Source of the DNA: Escherichia phage UPWr_E1
DNA length: 64,000 nt
Strand: one strand, 5' to 3'
Sequence record: PP418985.1
A program made the translations under genes and the position numbers. Shown one piece after another: positions 15,905 to 27,626 of this stretch (position 1 is the stretch's first letter; each line of letters begins with the position of its first letter). Under the pieces are notes generated by a model, which worked only from the letters and a program-made list of their open reading frames with translations, made no database searches and was not told the DNA's origin.

Positions 15905-16250
15905 AATAGAAGATTGCTCATTCAGAGCAATGAAAGATGATTTTTCGGTCCTGTACGCGTCTATCCGAGAATTGTTTGTAGATTTTAAGCAATTCAGGGA
16001 ATACAAAGGCGTTAAGATGCGGGAGTGGGTATTCTGGCCTTTCTATATCATTACTCTGTTTTCTATGGTATTTTGTTTTGTCGGGATCACTATCGCTAGT
16101 TTTGTCACTTGCGTTTTCCTGATTATCCGGTGTATCATGTTTGCTTTGATTGCTGCCCCGTTTATTGTTTCAATCCTTCCGTTAAAATGGCTATTGGATT
16201 GGGCTGATAAATCTGATAAAGTAAAGAATGTGATTTGTAAGCGTGTATGA
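15888..16250 (+). CDS. Hypothetical membrane protein
   Basis: Two or three hydrophobic helices (FYIITLFSMVFCFVGITIASFVTCVFLII; FALIAAPFIVSILPL). Confidence 0.45.
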   Translation: MLGHSKIEDCSFRAMKDDFSVLYASIRELFVDFKQFREYKGVKMREWVFWPFYIITLFSMVFCFVGITIASFVTCVFLIIRCIMFALIAAPFIVSILPLKWLLDWADKSDKVKNVICKRV

Positions 16251-17604
16251 GGTGAAGATGAATAAATCAGTTACTTACCGCAGCCTTGAAAGCATTGTAC
16301 ATAATGAAGCTAAGGAATATGCGATCTATTCCGCCGAGGAACGCGGTATTCCTCAATTAGTAGATGGTCTTAAACCAGTGCAACGCTTTGTTATGGAATG
16401 TGCTTTGCAAAAGAGTAAAGGCGACCGTAAGAAATTCCGTAAGATGGCAGATATTGGATCTGGTGTTGCTGAGTTGGGTTATCACCACGGGGAAACTAAT
16501 GCCGTAGAAGCCGGATCACTTATGGCGAATACATGGAGCAATAATACTCCACTGCTTGACGGTCAAGGTAACTTCGGATCGCGTTTAGTCCAGAAAGCGG
16601 GTGCAGCACGTTATATCTTTGCTCGTGTGCATGAAAACTTCTTTAAAATCTATAAAGATATGAATTGCGCACCTAAGCACGAAGATCTGGAACACATCCC
16701 GCCATCGTTCTACTTGCCAGTTGTGCCAATGGTATTAGCTAATGGTATTAGTGGTATTGCTACAGGGTATAAAACTGACATTTTACCGCATTCACTGGAA
16801 AGCCTTATTGAATGCACAGAGCTAGCACTTGCCGGAAAACTGGATAAAGAACCTAGTGTTCAATTCCCAAAATTCACGGGTAAAGTTATCCCGCGCGATG
16901 ACCGCGATGGTGTTATTCTTGAGGGTACATATGAACTAAACGGCAAGACTAAGCTGACAATATCAGAAGTTCCTTATAAGTTCGACCGTGAAGAATATGT
17001 AGCTGTACTGGATGCACTGGAAGAAAAAGATCTGATTGTATCGTATAATGACCGTTGCTCTAAGGACGGATTCAGATTTGAGGTAACACTGAAACGTGAT
17101 TATTTCAAAAGCGAAGATGAATCCGCTCGACATGAGCAGATCATGAAGGATTTTAAGCTAACGCAGTTAGTAGCCCAGAATATCGTAGTAGTTAACGAAC
17201 GTGGTTTAGTAGAAGTATTCGAGAAAGCGAGCGATTTGATCCGTCGATTCGTCGAAATCCGATTAGGCTATGTAGATAAACGCATTGAATTGATGCAAGC
17301 CGAAACACTGGAAGCATACAATTATGCAATGGCTAAAGCAGAATTTATCGACCGTGTGATTAAGGGCGAAATCGAGCTACAGGGCAAGAAAAAGGCCGAG
17401 GTAATGCAATCCATCAATGAACATGAAAAACTTCGCCCATATGCCGATAAGCTCGTTTCTATGCCATTGTATAGCGTTACTCAAGAAGAGTACGATCGAC
17501 TGGTCAAAGATGCCGATAAACATCATAGTGAATATGAGTATTGGACAAAGACGACCGCAATGAAGGAATATAAGAAAGATCTTAAAGAACTTAAGAAGGC
17601 TTGA
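16243..17604 (+). CDS. 52: DNA topoisomerase II medium subunit (gp52, GyrA-like)
   Basis: 453 aa; KPVQRFV, DLGYHHGE, LLDGQGNFGS, RYIFARV blocks. Confidence 0.9.
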   Translation: MYEVKMNKSVTYRSLESIVHNEAKEYAIYSAEERGIPQLVDGLKPVQRFVMECALQKSKGDRKKFRKMADIGSGVAELGYHHGETNAVEAGSLMANTWSNNTPLLDGQGNFGSRLVQKAGAARYIFARVHENFFKIYKDMNCAPKHEDLEHIPPSFYLPVVPMVLANGISGIATGYKTDILPHSLESLIECTELALAGKLDKEPSVQFPKFTGKVIPRDDRDGVILEGTYELNGKTKLTISEVPYKFDREEYVAVLDALEEKDLIVSYNDRCSKDGFRFEVTLKRDYFKSEDESARHEQIMKDFKLTQLVAQNIVVVNERGLVEVFEKASDLIRRFVEIRLGYVDKRIELMQAETLEAYNYAMAKAEFIDRVIKGEIELQGKKKAEVMQSINEHEKLRPYADKLVSMPLYSVTQEEYDRLVKDADKHHSEYEYWTKTTAMKEYKKDLKELKKA

Positions 17605-19541: not shown

Positions 19542-19570
19542 TTGACACCGGATTAAGGGAGTAGTAAGAT
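19542..19570 (+). promoter_or_regulatory. Sigma70-type early promoter with -10 inside a hairpin
   Basis: TTGACA-17-TAAGAT; GGGAGTA/TACTCCC. Confidence 0.6.
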
Positions 19571-19604
19571 ACTCCCATCAAGACAAAACACTGAGGAATA
19601 TATT

Positions 19605-20372
19605 ATGAAAAACCTGATCGCTGCTATCATTCTTTCTGCTACTGCTTTCGGTGCTAATGCTGCGTCCTTCGATTGCGCTAAAGCTACTACCAAATCAGAG
19701 AAGTTTATTTGCGCGAATGAGTCTATCTCCGAACTGGATTCTAAACTTCATGAAGTATATGTTAAAGCTGTTAAGATTGATCCGTCTCTGAAACAAGAGC
19801 AACGCAACTGGAATAAAACTGTTCGTGATACAATGATCAATATCGGGCAGATTCAGCCACTGGAGGCTGTATATAACGCTCAAATTCAAAACTTGATGAA
19901 TGTATTGCCTAAAGAAGAAACCTCGTCAGAAAGAGAATCAGAGGCTTCTGTGAAGGTTGAAGAACAACAACCGAAACAGGAAGAAAAAGTTGTAGTTCAA
20001 CCGAAGAAAGAAAAGAAACCACAAACCAGCGAGTTTACCTTGCAATGTGAATCTCACTTTAAATGGAAAAATATCGACGGAGCAAACACTAAGCCGAAAG
20101 CACAGCCATTTTATAAAGAGTACAATCCAGGTGAATTGACTCTGAAAGTAAAAGATGGTCAGATTATCCATTTTACATACATCGACAATAATGATGTGCA
20201 TAAGGCAAACACAAAACGAGTAGTTGATGACAACGGAATGATCGTTTTTAGCGGCTGGAAAGAAAATAAAAAGTATTATGTGTGGCGTGAACAGGATAGC
20301 GATATCATTCGCTTAGAAGTCCGCGAACAAGGATACTCTAAAATCTATGTTGACCAGTACGGGTGCAGATAA
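19605..20372 (+). CDS. Secreted protein with DUF1311/LprI-like (lysozyme-inhibitor-like) N-terminal domain
   Basis: Signal peptide MKNLIAAIILSATAFGANA; C..A.T..E..IC...D..L...Y ... Q.NW...RD pattern of DUF1311; Lys/Glu-rich linker. Confidence 0.5.
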   Translation: MKNLIAAIILSATAFGANAASFDCAKATTKSEKFICANESISELDSKLHEVYVKAVKIDPSLKQEQRNWNKTVRDTMINIGQIQPLEAVYNAQIQNLMNVLPKEETSSERESEASVKVEEQQPKQEEKVVVQPKKEKKPQTSEFTLQCESHFKWKNIDGANTKPKAQPFYKEYNPGELTLKVKDGQIIHFTYIDNNDVHKANTKRVVDDNGMIVFSGWKENKKYYVWREQDSDIIRLEVREQGYSKIYVDQYGCR

Positions 20373-20662
20373 TTATGAAATTCAACAGCATGAAGATTAC
20401 AAAAGATTGGTGGAAGGCGATGCAAGATACTCCAGAAACCAAATTAAGCGAGACAACAACCACAATACAAGTTGATTACGAAGATCCTAAAGACATATAC
20501 AGAGAGATTTTAATCAGAGAGCTTATAAAAGCTGGAAACTATCAAACACCAGATGGCCTTATTGACATGATGGTTAAAGGTCTGTATAGTGGTAAAAATC
20601 CAGATGTTTTACCGTGGTACGAGGGATATTTTAAAACATATCGTGACCACAACCGAAAATAA
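20363..20662 (+). CDS. Hypothetical protein
   Basis: 99-aa ORF. Confidence 0.4.
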   Translation: MQIIMKFNSMKITKDWWKAMQDTPETKLSETTTTIQVDYEDPKDIYREILIRELIKAGNYQTPDGLIDMMVKGLYSGKNPDVLPWYEGYFKTYRDHNRK

Positions 20663-22660: not shown

Positions 22661-23317
22661 TTATCTAATCCTTCCGAGGATTCTGGCAGATTGATTGCAA
22701 AGAGTATCTAAATTCTCAATGTCAATATCTGGTTTATTCTTCCATGCAATGGCGATACTACCAGAATAGACATTATCGAGATTGAATATAGGACAAGAAT
22801 ACATGAATCCTATATCGATATTCTCTAATTTTTTCTCCCTCGACGGAATATACTGGAAATCTTTATCGGTAAAATAGGATTTACCTAAAAGATGCCTACG
22901 ATATTCTTCGCTCGTTTTATTGATAGGGAAGCCGCCTAAATTCTTTTCATCAATTGTATGTGGCAATTTTCCTTCGTATGCCACCAAATCAACGAAATAG
23001 TTTAGGTTTTTTGGACGAAAGCTAAAAACAGCAGAAAAATCGGCATCTGCCGACACATGAACTATCTGTAACTGCTCCTGTGCTGCATTATCAAAATTGC
23101 GGTCTTTTTCTACCTGGAGAACGTGAGCATAAGTCTCATAACGAGTTTCTTTATAAAGCGCAAACAACTCGTTTTTGCTATAAACGACAAATGCTAATAT
23201 AGACAACACAACGGCAGCAAAAACACGAAGTACGAGCAACTCCGTGCTTTTAGTTGTGAAAATAGCGCGCAGGACATTTGAGATAGCAAAGTCTTTCTCT
23301 TTTTCAGAAACTTGCAT
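22661..23317 (-). CDS. t: Holin (T4 gpt-type)
   Basis: 218 aa, same length as T4 holin T; single N-terminal TMD; blocks EQLQIVH, ADFSAVFSFRPKNLNYFVD, AYEGKLP, MYSCPIFNLDN, ARILGR. Confidence 0.85.
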   Translation of the reverse strand: MQVSEKEKDFAISNVLRAIFTTKSTELLVLRVFAAVVLSILAFVVYSKNELFALYKETRYETYAHVLQVEKDRNFDNAAQEQLQIVHVSADADFSAVFSFRPKNLNYFVDLVAYEGKLPHTIDEKNLGGFPINKTSEEYRRHLLGKSYFTDKDFQYIPSREKKLENIDIGFMYSCPIFNLDNVYSGSIAIAWKNKPDIDIENLDTLCNQSARILGRIR

Positions 23318-23642: not shown

Positions 23643-23945
23643 TTAGCGGTTGCTCAAACGTCTATAGCGAAGATGGGAAATACCCCTGTTTGTAGTTACC
23701 GTGATCGTTACTCCCTGCGGCACAATACAAGAATGGATCTGTCCCCAATCATGACCCTTATGACTCCCAGACACACAAAAGCCATGCAAAAGCAATTCAG
23801 AGTCACCGCCACCACCACCAGAAGAATGAGCACCAAATGAAACCGTACCGAAAGCGTCTGGTGTCCATCCATTAGGGATATCAAACCAACCCTGATTCGC
23901 TTTACCAGCTTTATTACCTAAAACACCATCTACCCACCATCCCAT
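23643..23945 (-). CDS. Gly/His-rich small protein, paralog 3 of tandem triplet
   Basis: 100 aa; shares GWFxIPNGW, Gly-rich centre and C-terminal aromatic/basic tail with the next two ORFs. Confidence 0.55.
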   Translation of the reverse strand: MGWWVDGVLGNKAGKANQGWFDIPNGWTPDAFGTVSFGAHSSGGGGGDSELLLHGFCVSGSHKGHDWGQIHSCIVPQGVTITVTTNRGISHLRYRRLSNR

Positions 23946-24244
23946 TAATGCATTCTCCTAAATTGGAAGTGGTTTAAACTTCCTTTGCCAATACTAAAGC
24001 TGACAGTAGCGCCAGCACCAACTAAAGAACTAGCTCCCCAACTTCCTGCACTACCGGCGTGATGACCAGATTCAAGAGTACCGTTTACATATAGCTCTGC
24101 ATCTAGGTCATTACCAGCGGCTTCGGCATGAACAGATACAATACCGCATGAATCTGCCACCCAACCATTAGGAATACCAAACCATCCACCATTAGCATAA
24201 ATGCTAATAGCATTTGCCATTCTTCCAGCAATCCACCCAGCCAT
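23945..24244 (-). CDS. Gly/His-rich small protein, paralog 2 of tandem triplet
   Basis: 99 aa; ANGGWFGIPNGWVADSCGIVS; start overlaps upstream stop. Confidence 0.55.
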   Translation of the reverse strand: MAGWIAGRMANAISIYANGGWFGIPNGWVADSCGIVSVHAEAAGNDLDAELYVNGTLESGHHAGSAGSWGASSLVGAGATVSFSIGKGSLNHFQFRRMH

Positions 24245-24246
24245 AA

Positions 24247-24543
24247 TTAAAACTCCATAAATTTAAAGTATTCAATCCCACCGACACCACCATGACCAAA
24301 TGTAACAGTACATCCAGCAGGAACAAACGCATTAACGGTAAATCCCCAATCCCCGCCACCACGACGACGAGCGGCAACTACACCATCAACGGAAATATGC
24401 ATATCACCCCAACCATCATTAGCATTATGCCGCAAAACAGCAACCCCTGCACGACTGGGTACATATCCATTTGGAATATCAAAAACATGCCATTTTAAAG
24501 CATCAATTTTAGTATTAATTTCACTACCGACCCAATATCCCAT
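24247..24543 (-). CDS. Gly/His-rich small protein, paralog 1 of tandem triplet
   Basis: 98 aa; WHVFDIPNGYVPSRAGVAV; immediately downstream of gene 37. Confidence 0.55.
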   Translation of the reverse strand: MGYWVGSEINTKIDALKWHVFDIPNGYVPSRAGVAVLRHNANDGWGDMHISVDGVVAARRRGGGDWGFTVNAFVPAGCTVTFGHGGVGGIEYFKFMEF

Positions 24544-24581: not shown

Positions 24582-27500
24582 TTAACCAAATAATTTAGCC
24601 TCAATTGCAGCAAGACGTTCACGAAGAATTTTATTTTCTTCTTTAAGAAGTGCAATTTCTTCTGTGTGTTCGTTGATTGCAGCAGTAATTAAACCAATAA
24701 CACCGTTATAGTTCAAACGAAGAAGGTTTTCACCAACCGGATCGCCTTCAACTAGTTCCGGTAAAATGGCTTGAACTTCTTGAGCAATCAAACCAGCATT
24801 AGGCTCCCATCGTTCGCTACCGTCTTCATTTACTCCGCGTTTTTGAAGATACATATAACCGTTAATTTTTGAAAGTGTCTGTGATGCATTTTCAAATTTA
24901 ACTAAATCCTTCTTCACGCGAATATCAGAACGGATATAAATGTCACGAACATATGTCGAATAGTTGTCATTCGCCTGAATCAAATGACCATGAGAAATAA
25001 TAGCTTTGTCAACTTCGGTCCATAAAGCAGCACCAACACTCCATAATCCAGGATGTTCTTGATGGAAGATACCCCATGAGGCAATATGTTGTCCGTTTGC
25101 CATCAGGTTAATACGTCCATCACCACCATGCGCTAAACCAGTGTCATTATCACCAATAGCAATTGATGCGCCTCCCCAAACCGGAACCGTACCAACACCA
25201 ATTCTAGGAGTTTGAATCAAAGGGCAATAAAACTGTCCGTTAGCATGAAACTCAAACACACCTTGTGGATGGTTAGCCCCTGGTGTAGCTTCCGCAGATC
25301 CAACACGAATAACAGCTTGTCCCCATGTTCCGGGAGTACGACGTAAGCCAAAGTCAGCCTTAGTAGAATATCCTTGACCTGTGATCTGGCTATGTCCTTT
25401 AATAAGTGGATAATAGCTATCTTGTCCAACACTACCCTGATCAATAAAGATAGGTGCTTCTTCGCGCCACTGTCCGTCCCATGAACCGGAATGATTAGCA
25501 ACCCACTGTGTAGCGTTTATATAGATGCGGTCTTTGCTAATACTAACATTATTAAAATTTTGTGGCGCAAGTGCTATCTCGCCATTATTCGTGATGTGTA
25601 TACCAGCCTGAGTTGCATAGCTATAAAATGCTAGCGAATTATCCGCACCACCTTTACCAATATACCAGTTATTATTTCCGCCTATATCACCGCGAATATG
25701 CAAAGAATTGCTAGCGGTAGTCGATAGTACAATCGCATCACCCGGACGTTTAATGGTTAGTCGACCGTCGGATTCAACTTCACCAAAGAACTTAGTTTTA
25801 ATTGCACCCGTCGCTAAAGTACGTTCAGTGGAAAAATGAGCGCCTTTGCTATCTTCTAACTGAATAATGTTATCACGAGCATTATTGCTATCACCCCAAT
25901 GATTAAACCGGAAATAATCGCGTGATTGCTTACCACCCGCTTCAAACGTCAGCGTACCTTTACTTAAATTAACATCACCACCAAAGGTAGCAGCAAGCGA
26001 ACTACTTTTTAATCTTAAAATATCAGCACCGCTAGTTCCACCTAAAGTAACATCACCAGTTTTGAATTGATAACGGAAAGGTCTATTTGTGTTAAAGTTT
26101 CCATCTTGATCATTTTCGTCGGTGGAAAGAATATAAAGACTTTCACCATCATTACGGAAAATTGTACCAAAATTACCGCCATACATTTTAAATGCATTGG
26201 ATGAACGGAATTTAACTTCTGTGTTAAAAGTTGTAGTTGATTTAAACGTTGTTGAACTACCGAAGTTAACAACACCATTAAAATCTTGTTGTGCTGTCCA
26301 TGTGTGGCGACCATCTTCCACAACAATACGGCGAACGGTATTAGTTCTATTTCCCGGATTACCAGCTACACGAACGACAAAATAACGGTAGTTAGCTTGT
26401 GACACAGTACCACGCCAAACCTGAACGGTGCGACCTGTTCCGGTATGCTCACTAGGTCCAACGGATAACATAATTAAGTTACCGTCAATCGTTCCCCAAT
26501 CCATATTTGCTGGCATGTTCTTGACTTTATTCAGCGGTACGCTATACATCCCGCCAGGAACAAAATCAAATGTTTGCCAGTCTAGCTCTGTTAATTGAGC
26601 TTTAACACCACCCATACCCAAAGTAATTGGCAGAGAATAAGATGTATATACTTCGTTCCATGTACCCCAAACGCCATTAGTATATGCGCGCTCAAAAATA
26701 CGTCCGCGAGTAGTTGCACCTGTTCCGGCAGTAGTAAATTTTTGGAAAATAGCACCACCAGAAGCACGCTGTTTAACTTCCAGCAAACCAACAATAACAG
26801 GCGGCAAACCTTCACCTGTAGGGCAGTTAATAACGGCATCAGTGCCTAAAATATTATATAAACCTGGAGTTTTAAAATCATTCAGGTTTCCGTCATAGAA
26901 AGTCGCTGGTGTGACATTACCTACTTGTTGCCACGGTCCCCATTTAGGCGCAGAAGCATCCCACGCAGCAGCAAGACAACGAGTATAAACAACACCAAAT
27001 CTGGTCGTATATCTCTGTGTGCGAGAATATTTTCCACCTTCATATACTTCTAAAAGTCCTTGAGCGGACGATCCTTCTTCTGGGAAATTTCTGTCAAAGG
27101 TAGCAATGGTATTTGAACTATTCCGCCACAAACCAAAATGTTCCGCGCCACCTAGATCATTAAGATCAATTGTGGTTGACAATGGACGAGTACCGGATTG
27201 AATATTTCTCCACACACCCCACGGACCATCAACACCATTCCATTTAGCAGACAAAGAACGAATATAAACATTTCCGTATCTAGTTGTATATCTCTGAGTT
27301 CCAGCAAATTGCCCAGCCGTAAACACTTCCAATACACCAACAGCATTTTCTTCTGGGAATTTATTTGCAGGTTGCGCATTTGTTGAAGTAGATTTAGACC
27401 AAATGCCAGTAAATTTACCAGTCGGTCCATAATTATCTAAATTTGCATCAGTTGGCAATTCGCCGCGAAAGTGTCCCAAAGTAATTACATTATTGCTGTC

Positions 27501-27626
27501 ATCTTTTGTATATAGTTCTCGATCCGCTAGGTTAATAGCAAGTTCACCCGGAGTTAGAATATTCGCATCCGGCTTGCGACCTGCCGTACTTGTTCTTTTA
27601 AATTGGATTCTCTGTAAATCTGCCAT
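24582..27626 (-). CDS. 37: Long tail fibre distal subunit (gp37-like) with C-terminal intramolecular chaperone domain
   Basis: 1014 aa; N-terminus MADLQRIQFKRTSTAGRKP...GELAINL matches T4 gp37; C-terminal SDIRVKKDL...NYNGVIGLITAAI...coiled coil is the S74-type autoproteolytic chaperone signature. Confidence 0.85.
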   Translation of the reverse strand: MADLQRIQFKRTSTAGRKPDANILTPGELAINLADRELYTKDDSNNVITLGHFRGELPTDANLDNYGPTGKFTGIWSKSTSTNAQPANKFPEENAVGVLEVFTAGQFAGTQRYTTRYGNVYIRSLSAKWNGVDGPWGVWRNIQSGTRPLSTTIDLNDLGGAEHFGLWRNSSNTIATFDRNFPEEGSSAQGLLEVYEGGKYSRTQRYTTRFGVVYTRCLAAAWDASAPKWGPWQQVGNVTPATFYDGNLNDFKTPGLYNILGTDAVINCPTGEGLPPVIVGLLEVKQRASGGAIFQKFTTAGTGATTRGRIFERAYTNGVWGTWNEVYTSYSLPITLGMGGVKAQLTELDWQTFDFVPGGMYSVPLNKVKNMPANMDWGTIDGNLIMLSVGPSEHTGTGRTVQVWRGTVSQANYRYFVVRVAGNPGNRTNTVRRIVVEDGRHTWTAQQDFNGVVNFGSSTTFKSTTTFNTEVKFRSSNAFKMYGGNFGTIFRNDGESLYILSTDENDQDGNFNTNRPFRYQFKTGDVTLGGTSGADILRLKSSSLAATFGGDVNLSKGTLTFEAGGKQSRDYFRFNHWGDSNNARDNIIQLEDSKGAHFSTERTLATGAIKTKFFGEVESDGRLTIKRPGDAIVLSTTASNSLHIRGDIGGNNNWYIGKGGADNSLAFYSYATQAGIHITNNGEIALAPQNFNNVSISKDRIYINATQWVANHSGSWDGQWREEAPIFIDQGSVGQDSYYPLIKGHSQITGQGYSTKADFGLRRTPGTWGQAVIRVGSAEATPGANHPQGVFEFHANGQFYCPLIQTPRIGVGTVPVWGGASIAIGDNDTGLAHGGDGRINLMANGQHIASWGIFHQEHPGLWSVGAALWTEVDKAIISHGHLIQANDNYSTYVRDIYIRSDIRVKKDLVKFENASQTLSKINGYMYLQKRGVNEDGSERWEPNAGLIAQEVQAILPELVEGDPVGENLLRLNYNGVIGLITAAINEHTEEIALLKEENKILRERLAAIEAKLFG

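Follow-up and report, generated by a model that had tools for sequence, protein, structure and literature searches.

One small gene of Escherichia phage UPWr_E1 raises the question of how T4-like phages without Spackle exclude competitors, and it bears on the disputed function of the widespread DUF1311/LprI domain. We analysed this gene within a stretch of 64,000 nucleotides of the phage DNA (PP418985.1), henceforth referred to as the window. The window belongs to a Krischvirus (RB49-like), and the DNA flanking the gene shares 93-96% identity with RB49-like coliphages. The open reading frame (ORF) is orthologous to RB49ORF260c, JSE_00265 and BN201_0263 of GEC-3S, all with the annotation 'hypothetical'. 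A table published in 2006 already lists DUF1311 as a weak match of RB49ORF260c (E = 0.2; PMC1524935), and the current UniProt name of the RB49 protein is LprI-like N-terminal domain protein. Our literature search found no study of an RB49ORF260c-type protein.

The ORF lies among small early genes that extend from topoisomerase gene 52 to holin gene t (Table 1), and the phage genes adjoining it are small and have no assigned function. It is kept in 58 Krischvirus records and matches phrog_14799 with an E value of 8e-116. Among phages, the part encoding the N-terminal half has a dS of 0.13-0.24 and a dN/dS of 0.02-0.18, indicating strong purifying selection. This conservation argues that the pattern described here is more than chance. 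The promoter-like site upstream is near-identical in an alignment of JSE, RB49, GEC-3S and Skers, and its counterpart carries a promoter annotation in the GEC-3S record. The gene immediately downstream exists as two allele types with about 50% mutual identity.

Table 1. Positions of the ORF, its parts and the neighbouring features in the window
Feature	Positions	Strand	Basis or remark
Topoisomerase gene 52	16243-17604		
Early-type sigma-70 promoter-like site, TTGACA-17 nt-TAAGAT	19542-19570	+	Consensus scan, 10/12 matches
Shine-Dalgarno GAGGA	19593-19597	+	Read from sequence, 7 nt before ATG; conserved in alignment of relatives
ORF, ATG to TAA	19605-20372	+	255 aa
Signal peptide, residues 1-19, predicted SPase I cut ANA/AS	19605-19661	+	n/h/c regions, -3/-1 rule
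LprI/DUF1311 helical domain, residues 20-103, invariant C24 and C36	19662-19913	+	PF07007, AlphaFold2
Disordered Lys/Glu/Pro/Gln linker, residues 104-138	19914-20018	+	pLDDT 33-43
Hypervariable C-terminal domain, residues 139-255, class A	20019-20369	+	8-stranded up-and-down beta-barrel
C148, invariant	20046-20048	+	N-terminal bracket of the barrel
C254, invariant	20364-20366	+	C-terminal bracket of the barrel
Downstream gene	20375-20662	+	95 aa, phrog_15915
Holin gene t	22661-23317	-	2.3 kb from the ORF
Three tandem paralogous ORFs	23643-24543	-	98-100 aa
gp37, distal tail fibre	24582-27626	-	

An initial annotation, made from the letters of the window, had described a secreted protein with a cleavable signal peptide, and this description agrees with what we found. 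The predicted signal peptide (pLDDT < 50) has a lysine at position 2, a hydrophobic core at residues 4-16 and then A17-N18-A19, with A20 as the predicted first residue of the mature product. The call is based on the n/h/c and -3/-1 rules together with conservation: a small residue occupies both -3 and -1 in 23 out of 23 homologs, two of them distant (ANA, ADA, VNA, SEA or AYA), and ASFDC follows the cleavage site in all of them. The protein has no lipobox: FGANA is followed by ASFDC, and the first cysteine, at mature position +5, lies outside a lipobox context.

The DUF1311/LprI pattern was likewise borne out. Pfam PF07007 matched residues 24-76 with 24.2 bits (gathering cut-off 22; E 4.7e-5), spanning profile positions 1-71 of 106, and the relative P0022 scored 24.9 bits. 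The LprI motif is present as C24..A27.T29..E32..I35C36, D45..L48...Y52 and Q66.N68W69....R74D75, with small corrections to the spacing first proposed, and its residues are invariant across the family. The two cysteines of the motif, downstream of the signal peptide, are kept in all 23 homologs, and the LprI domain has about 97-100% amino-acid identity among phage copies. AlphaFold2 predicted four helices in residues 30-100, with a pLDDT of about 75-85. A DUF1311 structure was absent among the best 50 Foldseek matches of the whole model in the PDB, and a PDB sequence search with the protein gave no match. The profile match and the motif support the assignment of this secreted-type protein to the LprI/DUF1311 family.

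The Lys/Glu-rich linker and C-terminal domain of the initial annotation correspond to a segment that AlphaFold2 predicts as disordered, followed by a confident all-beta domain. The annotation missed the main feature of the locus, which is a variable barrel behind a constant front half. When modelled alone, the C-terminal domain (117 aa) gave the barrel with a pLDDT of 89.6 and a pTM of 0.81, and the RB49-class barrel superposes on it with a TM of 0.86 at 37% identity. Within this domain, the two bracketing cysteines and a D-G turn (D158/G159) are the only residues that vary little or not at all between family members. Relatives share 92-97% DNA identity over the promoter, the signal peptide, the LprI domain and most of the linker. 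From near the end of the linker the identity drops to noise, and it is restored at the start codon of the next gene. The linker itself differs in length between alleles through EEKQP-like units. Its distal end, where DNA identity collapses, is the 5' boundary of the variable cassette, and the conserved N-terminal 15 residues of the downstream gene form the 3' boundary.

We distinguished at least six barrel classes, which are deeply diverged and each conserved internally. Class A comprises the window and P0001-3, and class A' (P0004-6) has 53% identity to the window barrel. Classes B (RB49, Skers, G2248), C (GEC-3S) and D (P0010, P0011, P0013, P0014) have 27-37% identity to it, and class E (JSE, P0015-20) has 10-15%. 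The homology of class E to classes A-D is marginal (hhalign E 0.0018, probability 15%), and the fold of class E is therefore assumed from the register of its cysteines and IDG turn. A word-index search with a profile of 10 barrel sequences returned close copies only and no outside homolog, and an exhaustive HMMER profile search of 1.84 billion representatives found no barrel relatives outside the family. P0025 and P0026, retrieved in the HMMER search, were set aside as repeat-protein artefacts. P0024 (66 aa, NCBI, on a 40 kb contig) joins the last ~50 residues of an E. coli class-E-like barrel to an unrelated N-terminus and is probably a recombination or truncation remnant. P0021 (330 aa, on a 152.8 kb contig) has the same signal peptide and LprI module and a different C-terminal region without a Pfam match.

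We compared the barrel with the MliC/PliC lysozyme inhibitors, in which conserved SxSGAxY and YxxxTKG loops insert into lysozyme. The bracketing cysteines of the barrel (xYQC near strand 1 and a C close to the end) are placed much as in E. coli MliC, and in the model the domain has the MliC/PliC-type layout: a soluble barrel of 8 beta-strands and about 100 aa, with one cysteine of a pair towards each terminus. S-SG--Y and W-KG are visible in the MliC/PliC comparison (alignment A10), and the invariant columns of classes A-D contain neither the SxSGAxY nor the YxxxTKG motif. Pfam searches with four barrel classes gave no MliC (PF09864) match at E up to 10. With hhalign, the probability was 3% for E. 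coli MliC, whose sequence agrees with PDB entry 2f09, and 2% for a profile built from 9 MliC/PliC sequences. MliC/PliC homology was therefore rejected at the sequence level, and the resemblance is architectural only. The PliC, MliC, PhiA and ACP inhibitors share only generic fold similarity with the barrel, and many unrelated barrels score equally well or better.

The barrel classes do not reflect ongoing rapid change. Within class A, the barrel has a dN/dS of 0.14-0.26, indicating purifying selection, and the RB49 and Skers barrels differ by 5 synonymous and 0 nonsynonymous changes. These values rule out continuous positive selection on the barrel, and the classes thus represent old, stable, functional alleles that have been reshuffled by recombination. 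Discrete classes with sharp cassette boundaries are a pattern typical of specificity or immunity types.

We searched for a partner that varies with the barrel. The tail lysozyme protein gp5 is at least 98.8% identical in 59 out of 59 Krischvirus records, whatever the barrel class, so the barrel variation cannot be explained by gp5. The genes for gp5.1/5.4 have at least 90% DNA identity in 58 out of 58 records (at least 95% in 57), and those for gp27-29 have at least 95% in 54 out of 58. The sole full-length relative of the window gp37 is that of G2248 (93%), yet G2248 carries the RB49 barrel class. The two alleles of the downstream gene are unlinked to barrel class. No co-variation of barrel class was found with gp5, gp5.1/5.4, gp27-29, gp37 or the downstream gene, and the barrel is thus variable without a matching variable partner among the candidates tested. 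A polymorphic toxin paired with a downstream immunity gene was also ruled out, on the grounds of the unlinked alleles and the absence of a toxin-domain signal.

The gene occurs outside phages, in 26 out of 5426 complete E. coli genomes with one copy each, and P0019 and P0014 are genuine E. coli chromosomal genes. The copies carry barrels of class D (12 genomes), an E-like class (6) and class A' (8), and the A' copies are 91% identical over the whole protein to the phage-type P0004. Homology between E. coli and phage is limited to the ORF. The upstream and downstream DNA is unrelated, and the E. coli copies have their own promoter-like site and a strong terminator. They always lie in a low-GC island (38-41%, compared with about 50% for the core) that truncates hicB. 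In the loci inspected (L007 1-6300, L008 1-6300 and L016), the island contains a gene resembling that of a terminase small subunit (TerS-like, phrog_57), genes for acidic coiled-coil hypothetical proteins and sometimes IS421, and it may be a satellite or prophage remnant. We rejected the island as a satellite of Krischvirus itself, given that its TerS-like protein is unrelated to RB49 gp16. We examined one E. coli copy of each class (EC416, DEC5A and E275), and the N-terminal substitutions N18D, A25T and P102S are common to all three, which implies that cassettes moved between phage and host more than once. Capture of the bare ORF by E. coli implies a benefit without any other phage gene, and its carriage may point to a part in keeping out rival phages or toxins.

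The protein had been proposed to act like Spackle, as a periplasmic inhibitor of the tail lysozyme of superinfecting phages. Several observations favour this proposal. A search with T4 Sp (query 100% identical to T4 orf 61.3) matched 927 phage records, and Krischvirus is absent from the 40 of these matches that were listed. By tblastn, T4 Sp had no significant match in the window or in positions 1-116 kb of RB49, two stretches that between them span a Krischvirus genome, and the RB49 61-41 interval holds no sp gene. In RB49 gp5, residues 189-320 form a Phage_lysozyme domain, whereas the endolysin of this phage is an M15 peptidase, so a periplasmic anti-lysozyme would leave the phage's own lysis undisturbed. 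The biochemical part of the proposal stands less well, as does any account of the barrel variation in terms of gp5. M. tuberculosis LprI also has an MliC domain that is sufficient for inhibition, and the link between DUF1311 and lysozyme rests on LprI; there is no experimental evidence for PF07007 itself as a lysozyme inhibitor, and the LprI-domain protein ScwA conferred no lysozyme resistance (PMC7933661). Klebsiella T4-like phages carry Spackle and a short LprI-only protein together, so it would be too simple to regard the LprI protein as a substitute for Spackle. A Spackle-like role is plausible, though unproven. PADLOC defence models gave no match.

Our preferred reading, to which we assign a probability of roughly 0.4, is that the gene encodes a polymorphic periplasmic superinfection-exclusion or envelope-immunity protein aimed at incoming cell-wall-cleaving machinery. 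Its place in the periplasm, the identity of what it binds and any effect on superinfecting phages are what we infer. Early expression and Sec export would yield a periplasmic protein in three parts: the helical LprI/DUF1311 domain, a charged and flexible spacer, and an 8-stranded beta-barrel that can be exchanged. In the periplasm, the protein would bind and neutralise an agent that attacks the cell wall from outside, most plausibly the gp5-type lysozyme on the tail of another T4-like phage. The conserved LprI domain would supply a conserved activity, the binding of a peptidoglycan hydrolase, and the barrel would recognise a second, variable partner in an allele-specific way. A constant target, for example the gp5 lysozyme or a host hydrolase, suits the constant half, and the variable half has the behaviour of a determinant of specificity or immunity.

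Several lines of evidence favour exclusion. The ORF has a signal peptide and an early-type promoter, and its N-terminal domain scores above the Pfam threshold for LprI. [quoted passage not shown] The Spackle niche is vacant in Krischviruses, which have the gp5 lysozyme domain and the peptidase endolysin. The N-terminal domain (about 98%) and gp5 are both constant, and the discrete barrel classes are under purifying selection with sharp boundaries. Finally, E. coli captured the ORF alone, with three barrel classes. A wider claim is doubtful: that this is a new family of polymorphic periplasmic exclusion proteins common to lytic T4-like phages and their hosts, in which a constant LprI 'handle' carries interchangeable barrel cassettes that choose the rival phages, or cell-wall toxins, to be excluded, and from which E. 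coli captured a phage gene as an island defence gene.

Among the alternatives, orphan immunity survives best, although we consider it unlikely. Its targets would be muramidase or amidase toxins that act in the periplasm (T6SS effectors, or pesticin- or colicin-type bacteriocins), and by neutralising them the protein would keep the infected cell alive until lysis. Orphan immunity genes of an ordinary kind would then be what E. coli carries. Published work reports or predicts that DUF1311 proteins confer T6SS immunity, immunity genes typically form discrete polymorphic classes that are under purifying selection, and E. coli chromosomes retain the gene with its own promoter and terminator. However, no effector gene or T6SS cluster adjoins it in phage or in E. 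coli, where the neighbours are the TerS-like gene, IS421 and hicAB. The composition is phage-like (38-39% GC, compared with about 50% for the E. coli core), and a short lytic cycle leaves little time for the benefit.

A role in lysis control is rather improbable. The LprI domain would modulate lytic transglycosylases, in a ScwA-like manner, or act in lysis inhibition or timing. Conserved host lytic transglycosylases would not select six barrel classes, and capture of the gene by E. coli would be hard to explain, even though the periplasmic LprI-domain protein ScwA controls MltD levels and lyses cells when overproduced, and Krischviruses have rI. The proximity of holin gene t could be taken in favour of lysis control, but it lies within a mosaic block of many unrelated small genes.

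It is very unlikely that the barrel masks receptors, by binding an outer-membrane receptor or an LPS/O-antigen intermediate in the periplasm and blocking adsorption or channel opening in the manner of Llp and Cor. Beyond the RB49 ortholog, its BFVD neighbours include small barrels of Erwinia phages annotated as lipoproteins, along with uncharacterised phage proteins (E 2e-5 to about 1e-3), but the product of the ORF is not a lipoprotein. The high mosaicism of gp37 in the genus means that receptors vary, but barrel class is independent of gp37 type, as in G2248, where the window gp37 type occurs with the RB49 barrel class. We give hardly any credence to a small-ligand barrel that sequesters a lipid, isoprenoid or nucleotide-like molecule (as in lipocalins, YceI or Cap15) with no protein binding, since the structural matches are generic to the barrel fold (1-13% identity) and pockets are usually conserved, whereas here only the cysteines and the D-G turn are.

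We compared the phage protein with known systems. Like it, M. tuberculosis LprI (Rv1541c) is exported and has an N-terminal PF07007 domain followed by an 8-stranded beta-barrel of ~100 aa between cysteines. LprI is a lipoprotein, whereas the phage protein lacks a lipobox and has a predicted SPase I cleavage site; it also has a 35-residue disordered linker between its domains, and a hypervariable barrel with no detectable sequence relationship to MliC. T4 Spackle (gene 61.3) is also an early product with a signal peptide and cysteines, from T4-type phages with a gp5 tail lysozyme, but the two proteins have no sequence similarity. Spackle is a helical bundle of 75 aa that is highly conserved among 178 homologs (PMC7677548), whereas the mature phage protein is predicted to have 236 aa in two domains, half of it hypervariable. 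EHEC Etsi4, the LprI-domain genes of Pantoea hcp islands and ScwA resemble the phage protein in that they are secreted, have a PF07007 domain and act on cell-wall hydrolases or in their vicinity, but none of them has been reported with a phage-type barrel. The phage gene also differs in having no effector neighbour. In Salmonella ScwA, which gives no protection against lysozyme, the LprI domain is at the C-terminus, whereas that of the phage protein is N-terminal.

The gene provides a compact test system, with one constant domain, at least six natural specificity cassettes, and natural E. coli strains with and without the gene. If it excludes phages, it would affect the design of phage cocktails against E. 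coli, and a single-gene defence of phage origin would join those already known. If it blocks bacterial toxins instead, it would show that lytic phages protect their host from neighbouring bacteria.

The LprI module also occurs by itself. In Klebsiella and Aeromonas T4-like phages we found the signal peptide and LprI module alone, with matched stretches of ~70-100 aa, and in Klebsiella phage SAKp28 the LprI-only gene lies 2.3 kb from spackle.

Of the other genes in the window, gp37 is strongly mosaic. Five further Krischviruses match it over 79% of its length, and the next best matches are gp37 proteins of Tequatrovirus at about 80% identity, a distribution of sequence matches that suggests exchange of tail fibres between Krischvirus and Tequatrovirus. 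The three tandem paralogous ORFs between holin gene t and gp37, whose products begin MGYWVG, MAGWIAG and MGWWVDG, have no informative PHROG match and may be tail-fibre accessory or adhesin-like genes. RB49 has an annotated gp38 adhesin-like gene far from gp37 (locus L009, 45367-46143), whereas the window gp37 has a chaperone-like C-terminal end and no adjoining gp38, and tail-fibre assembly strategies thus seem to differ within the genus.
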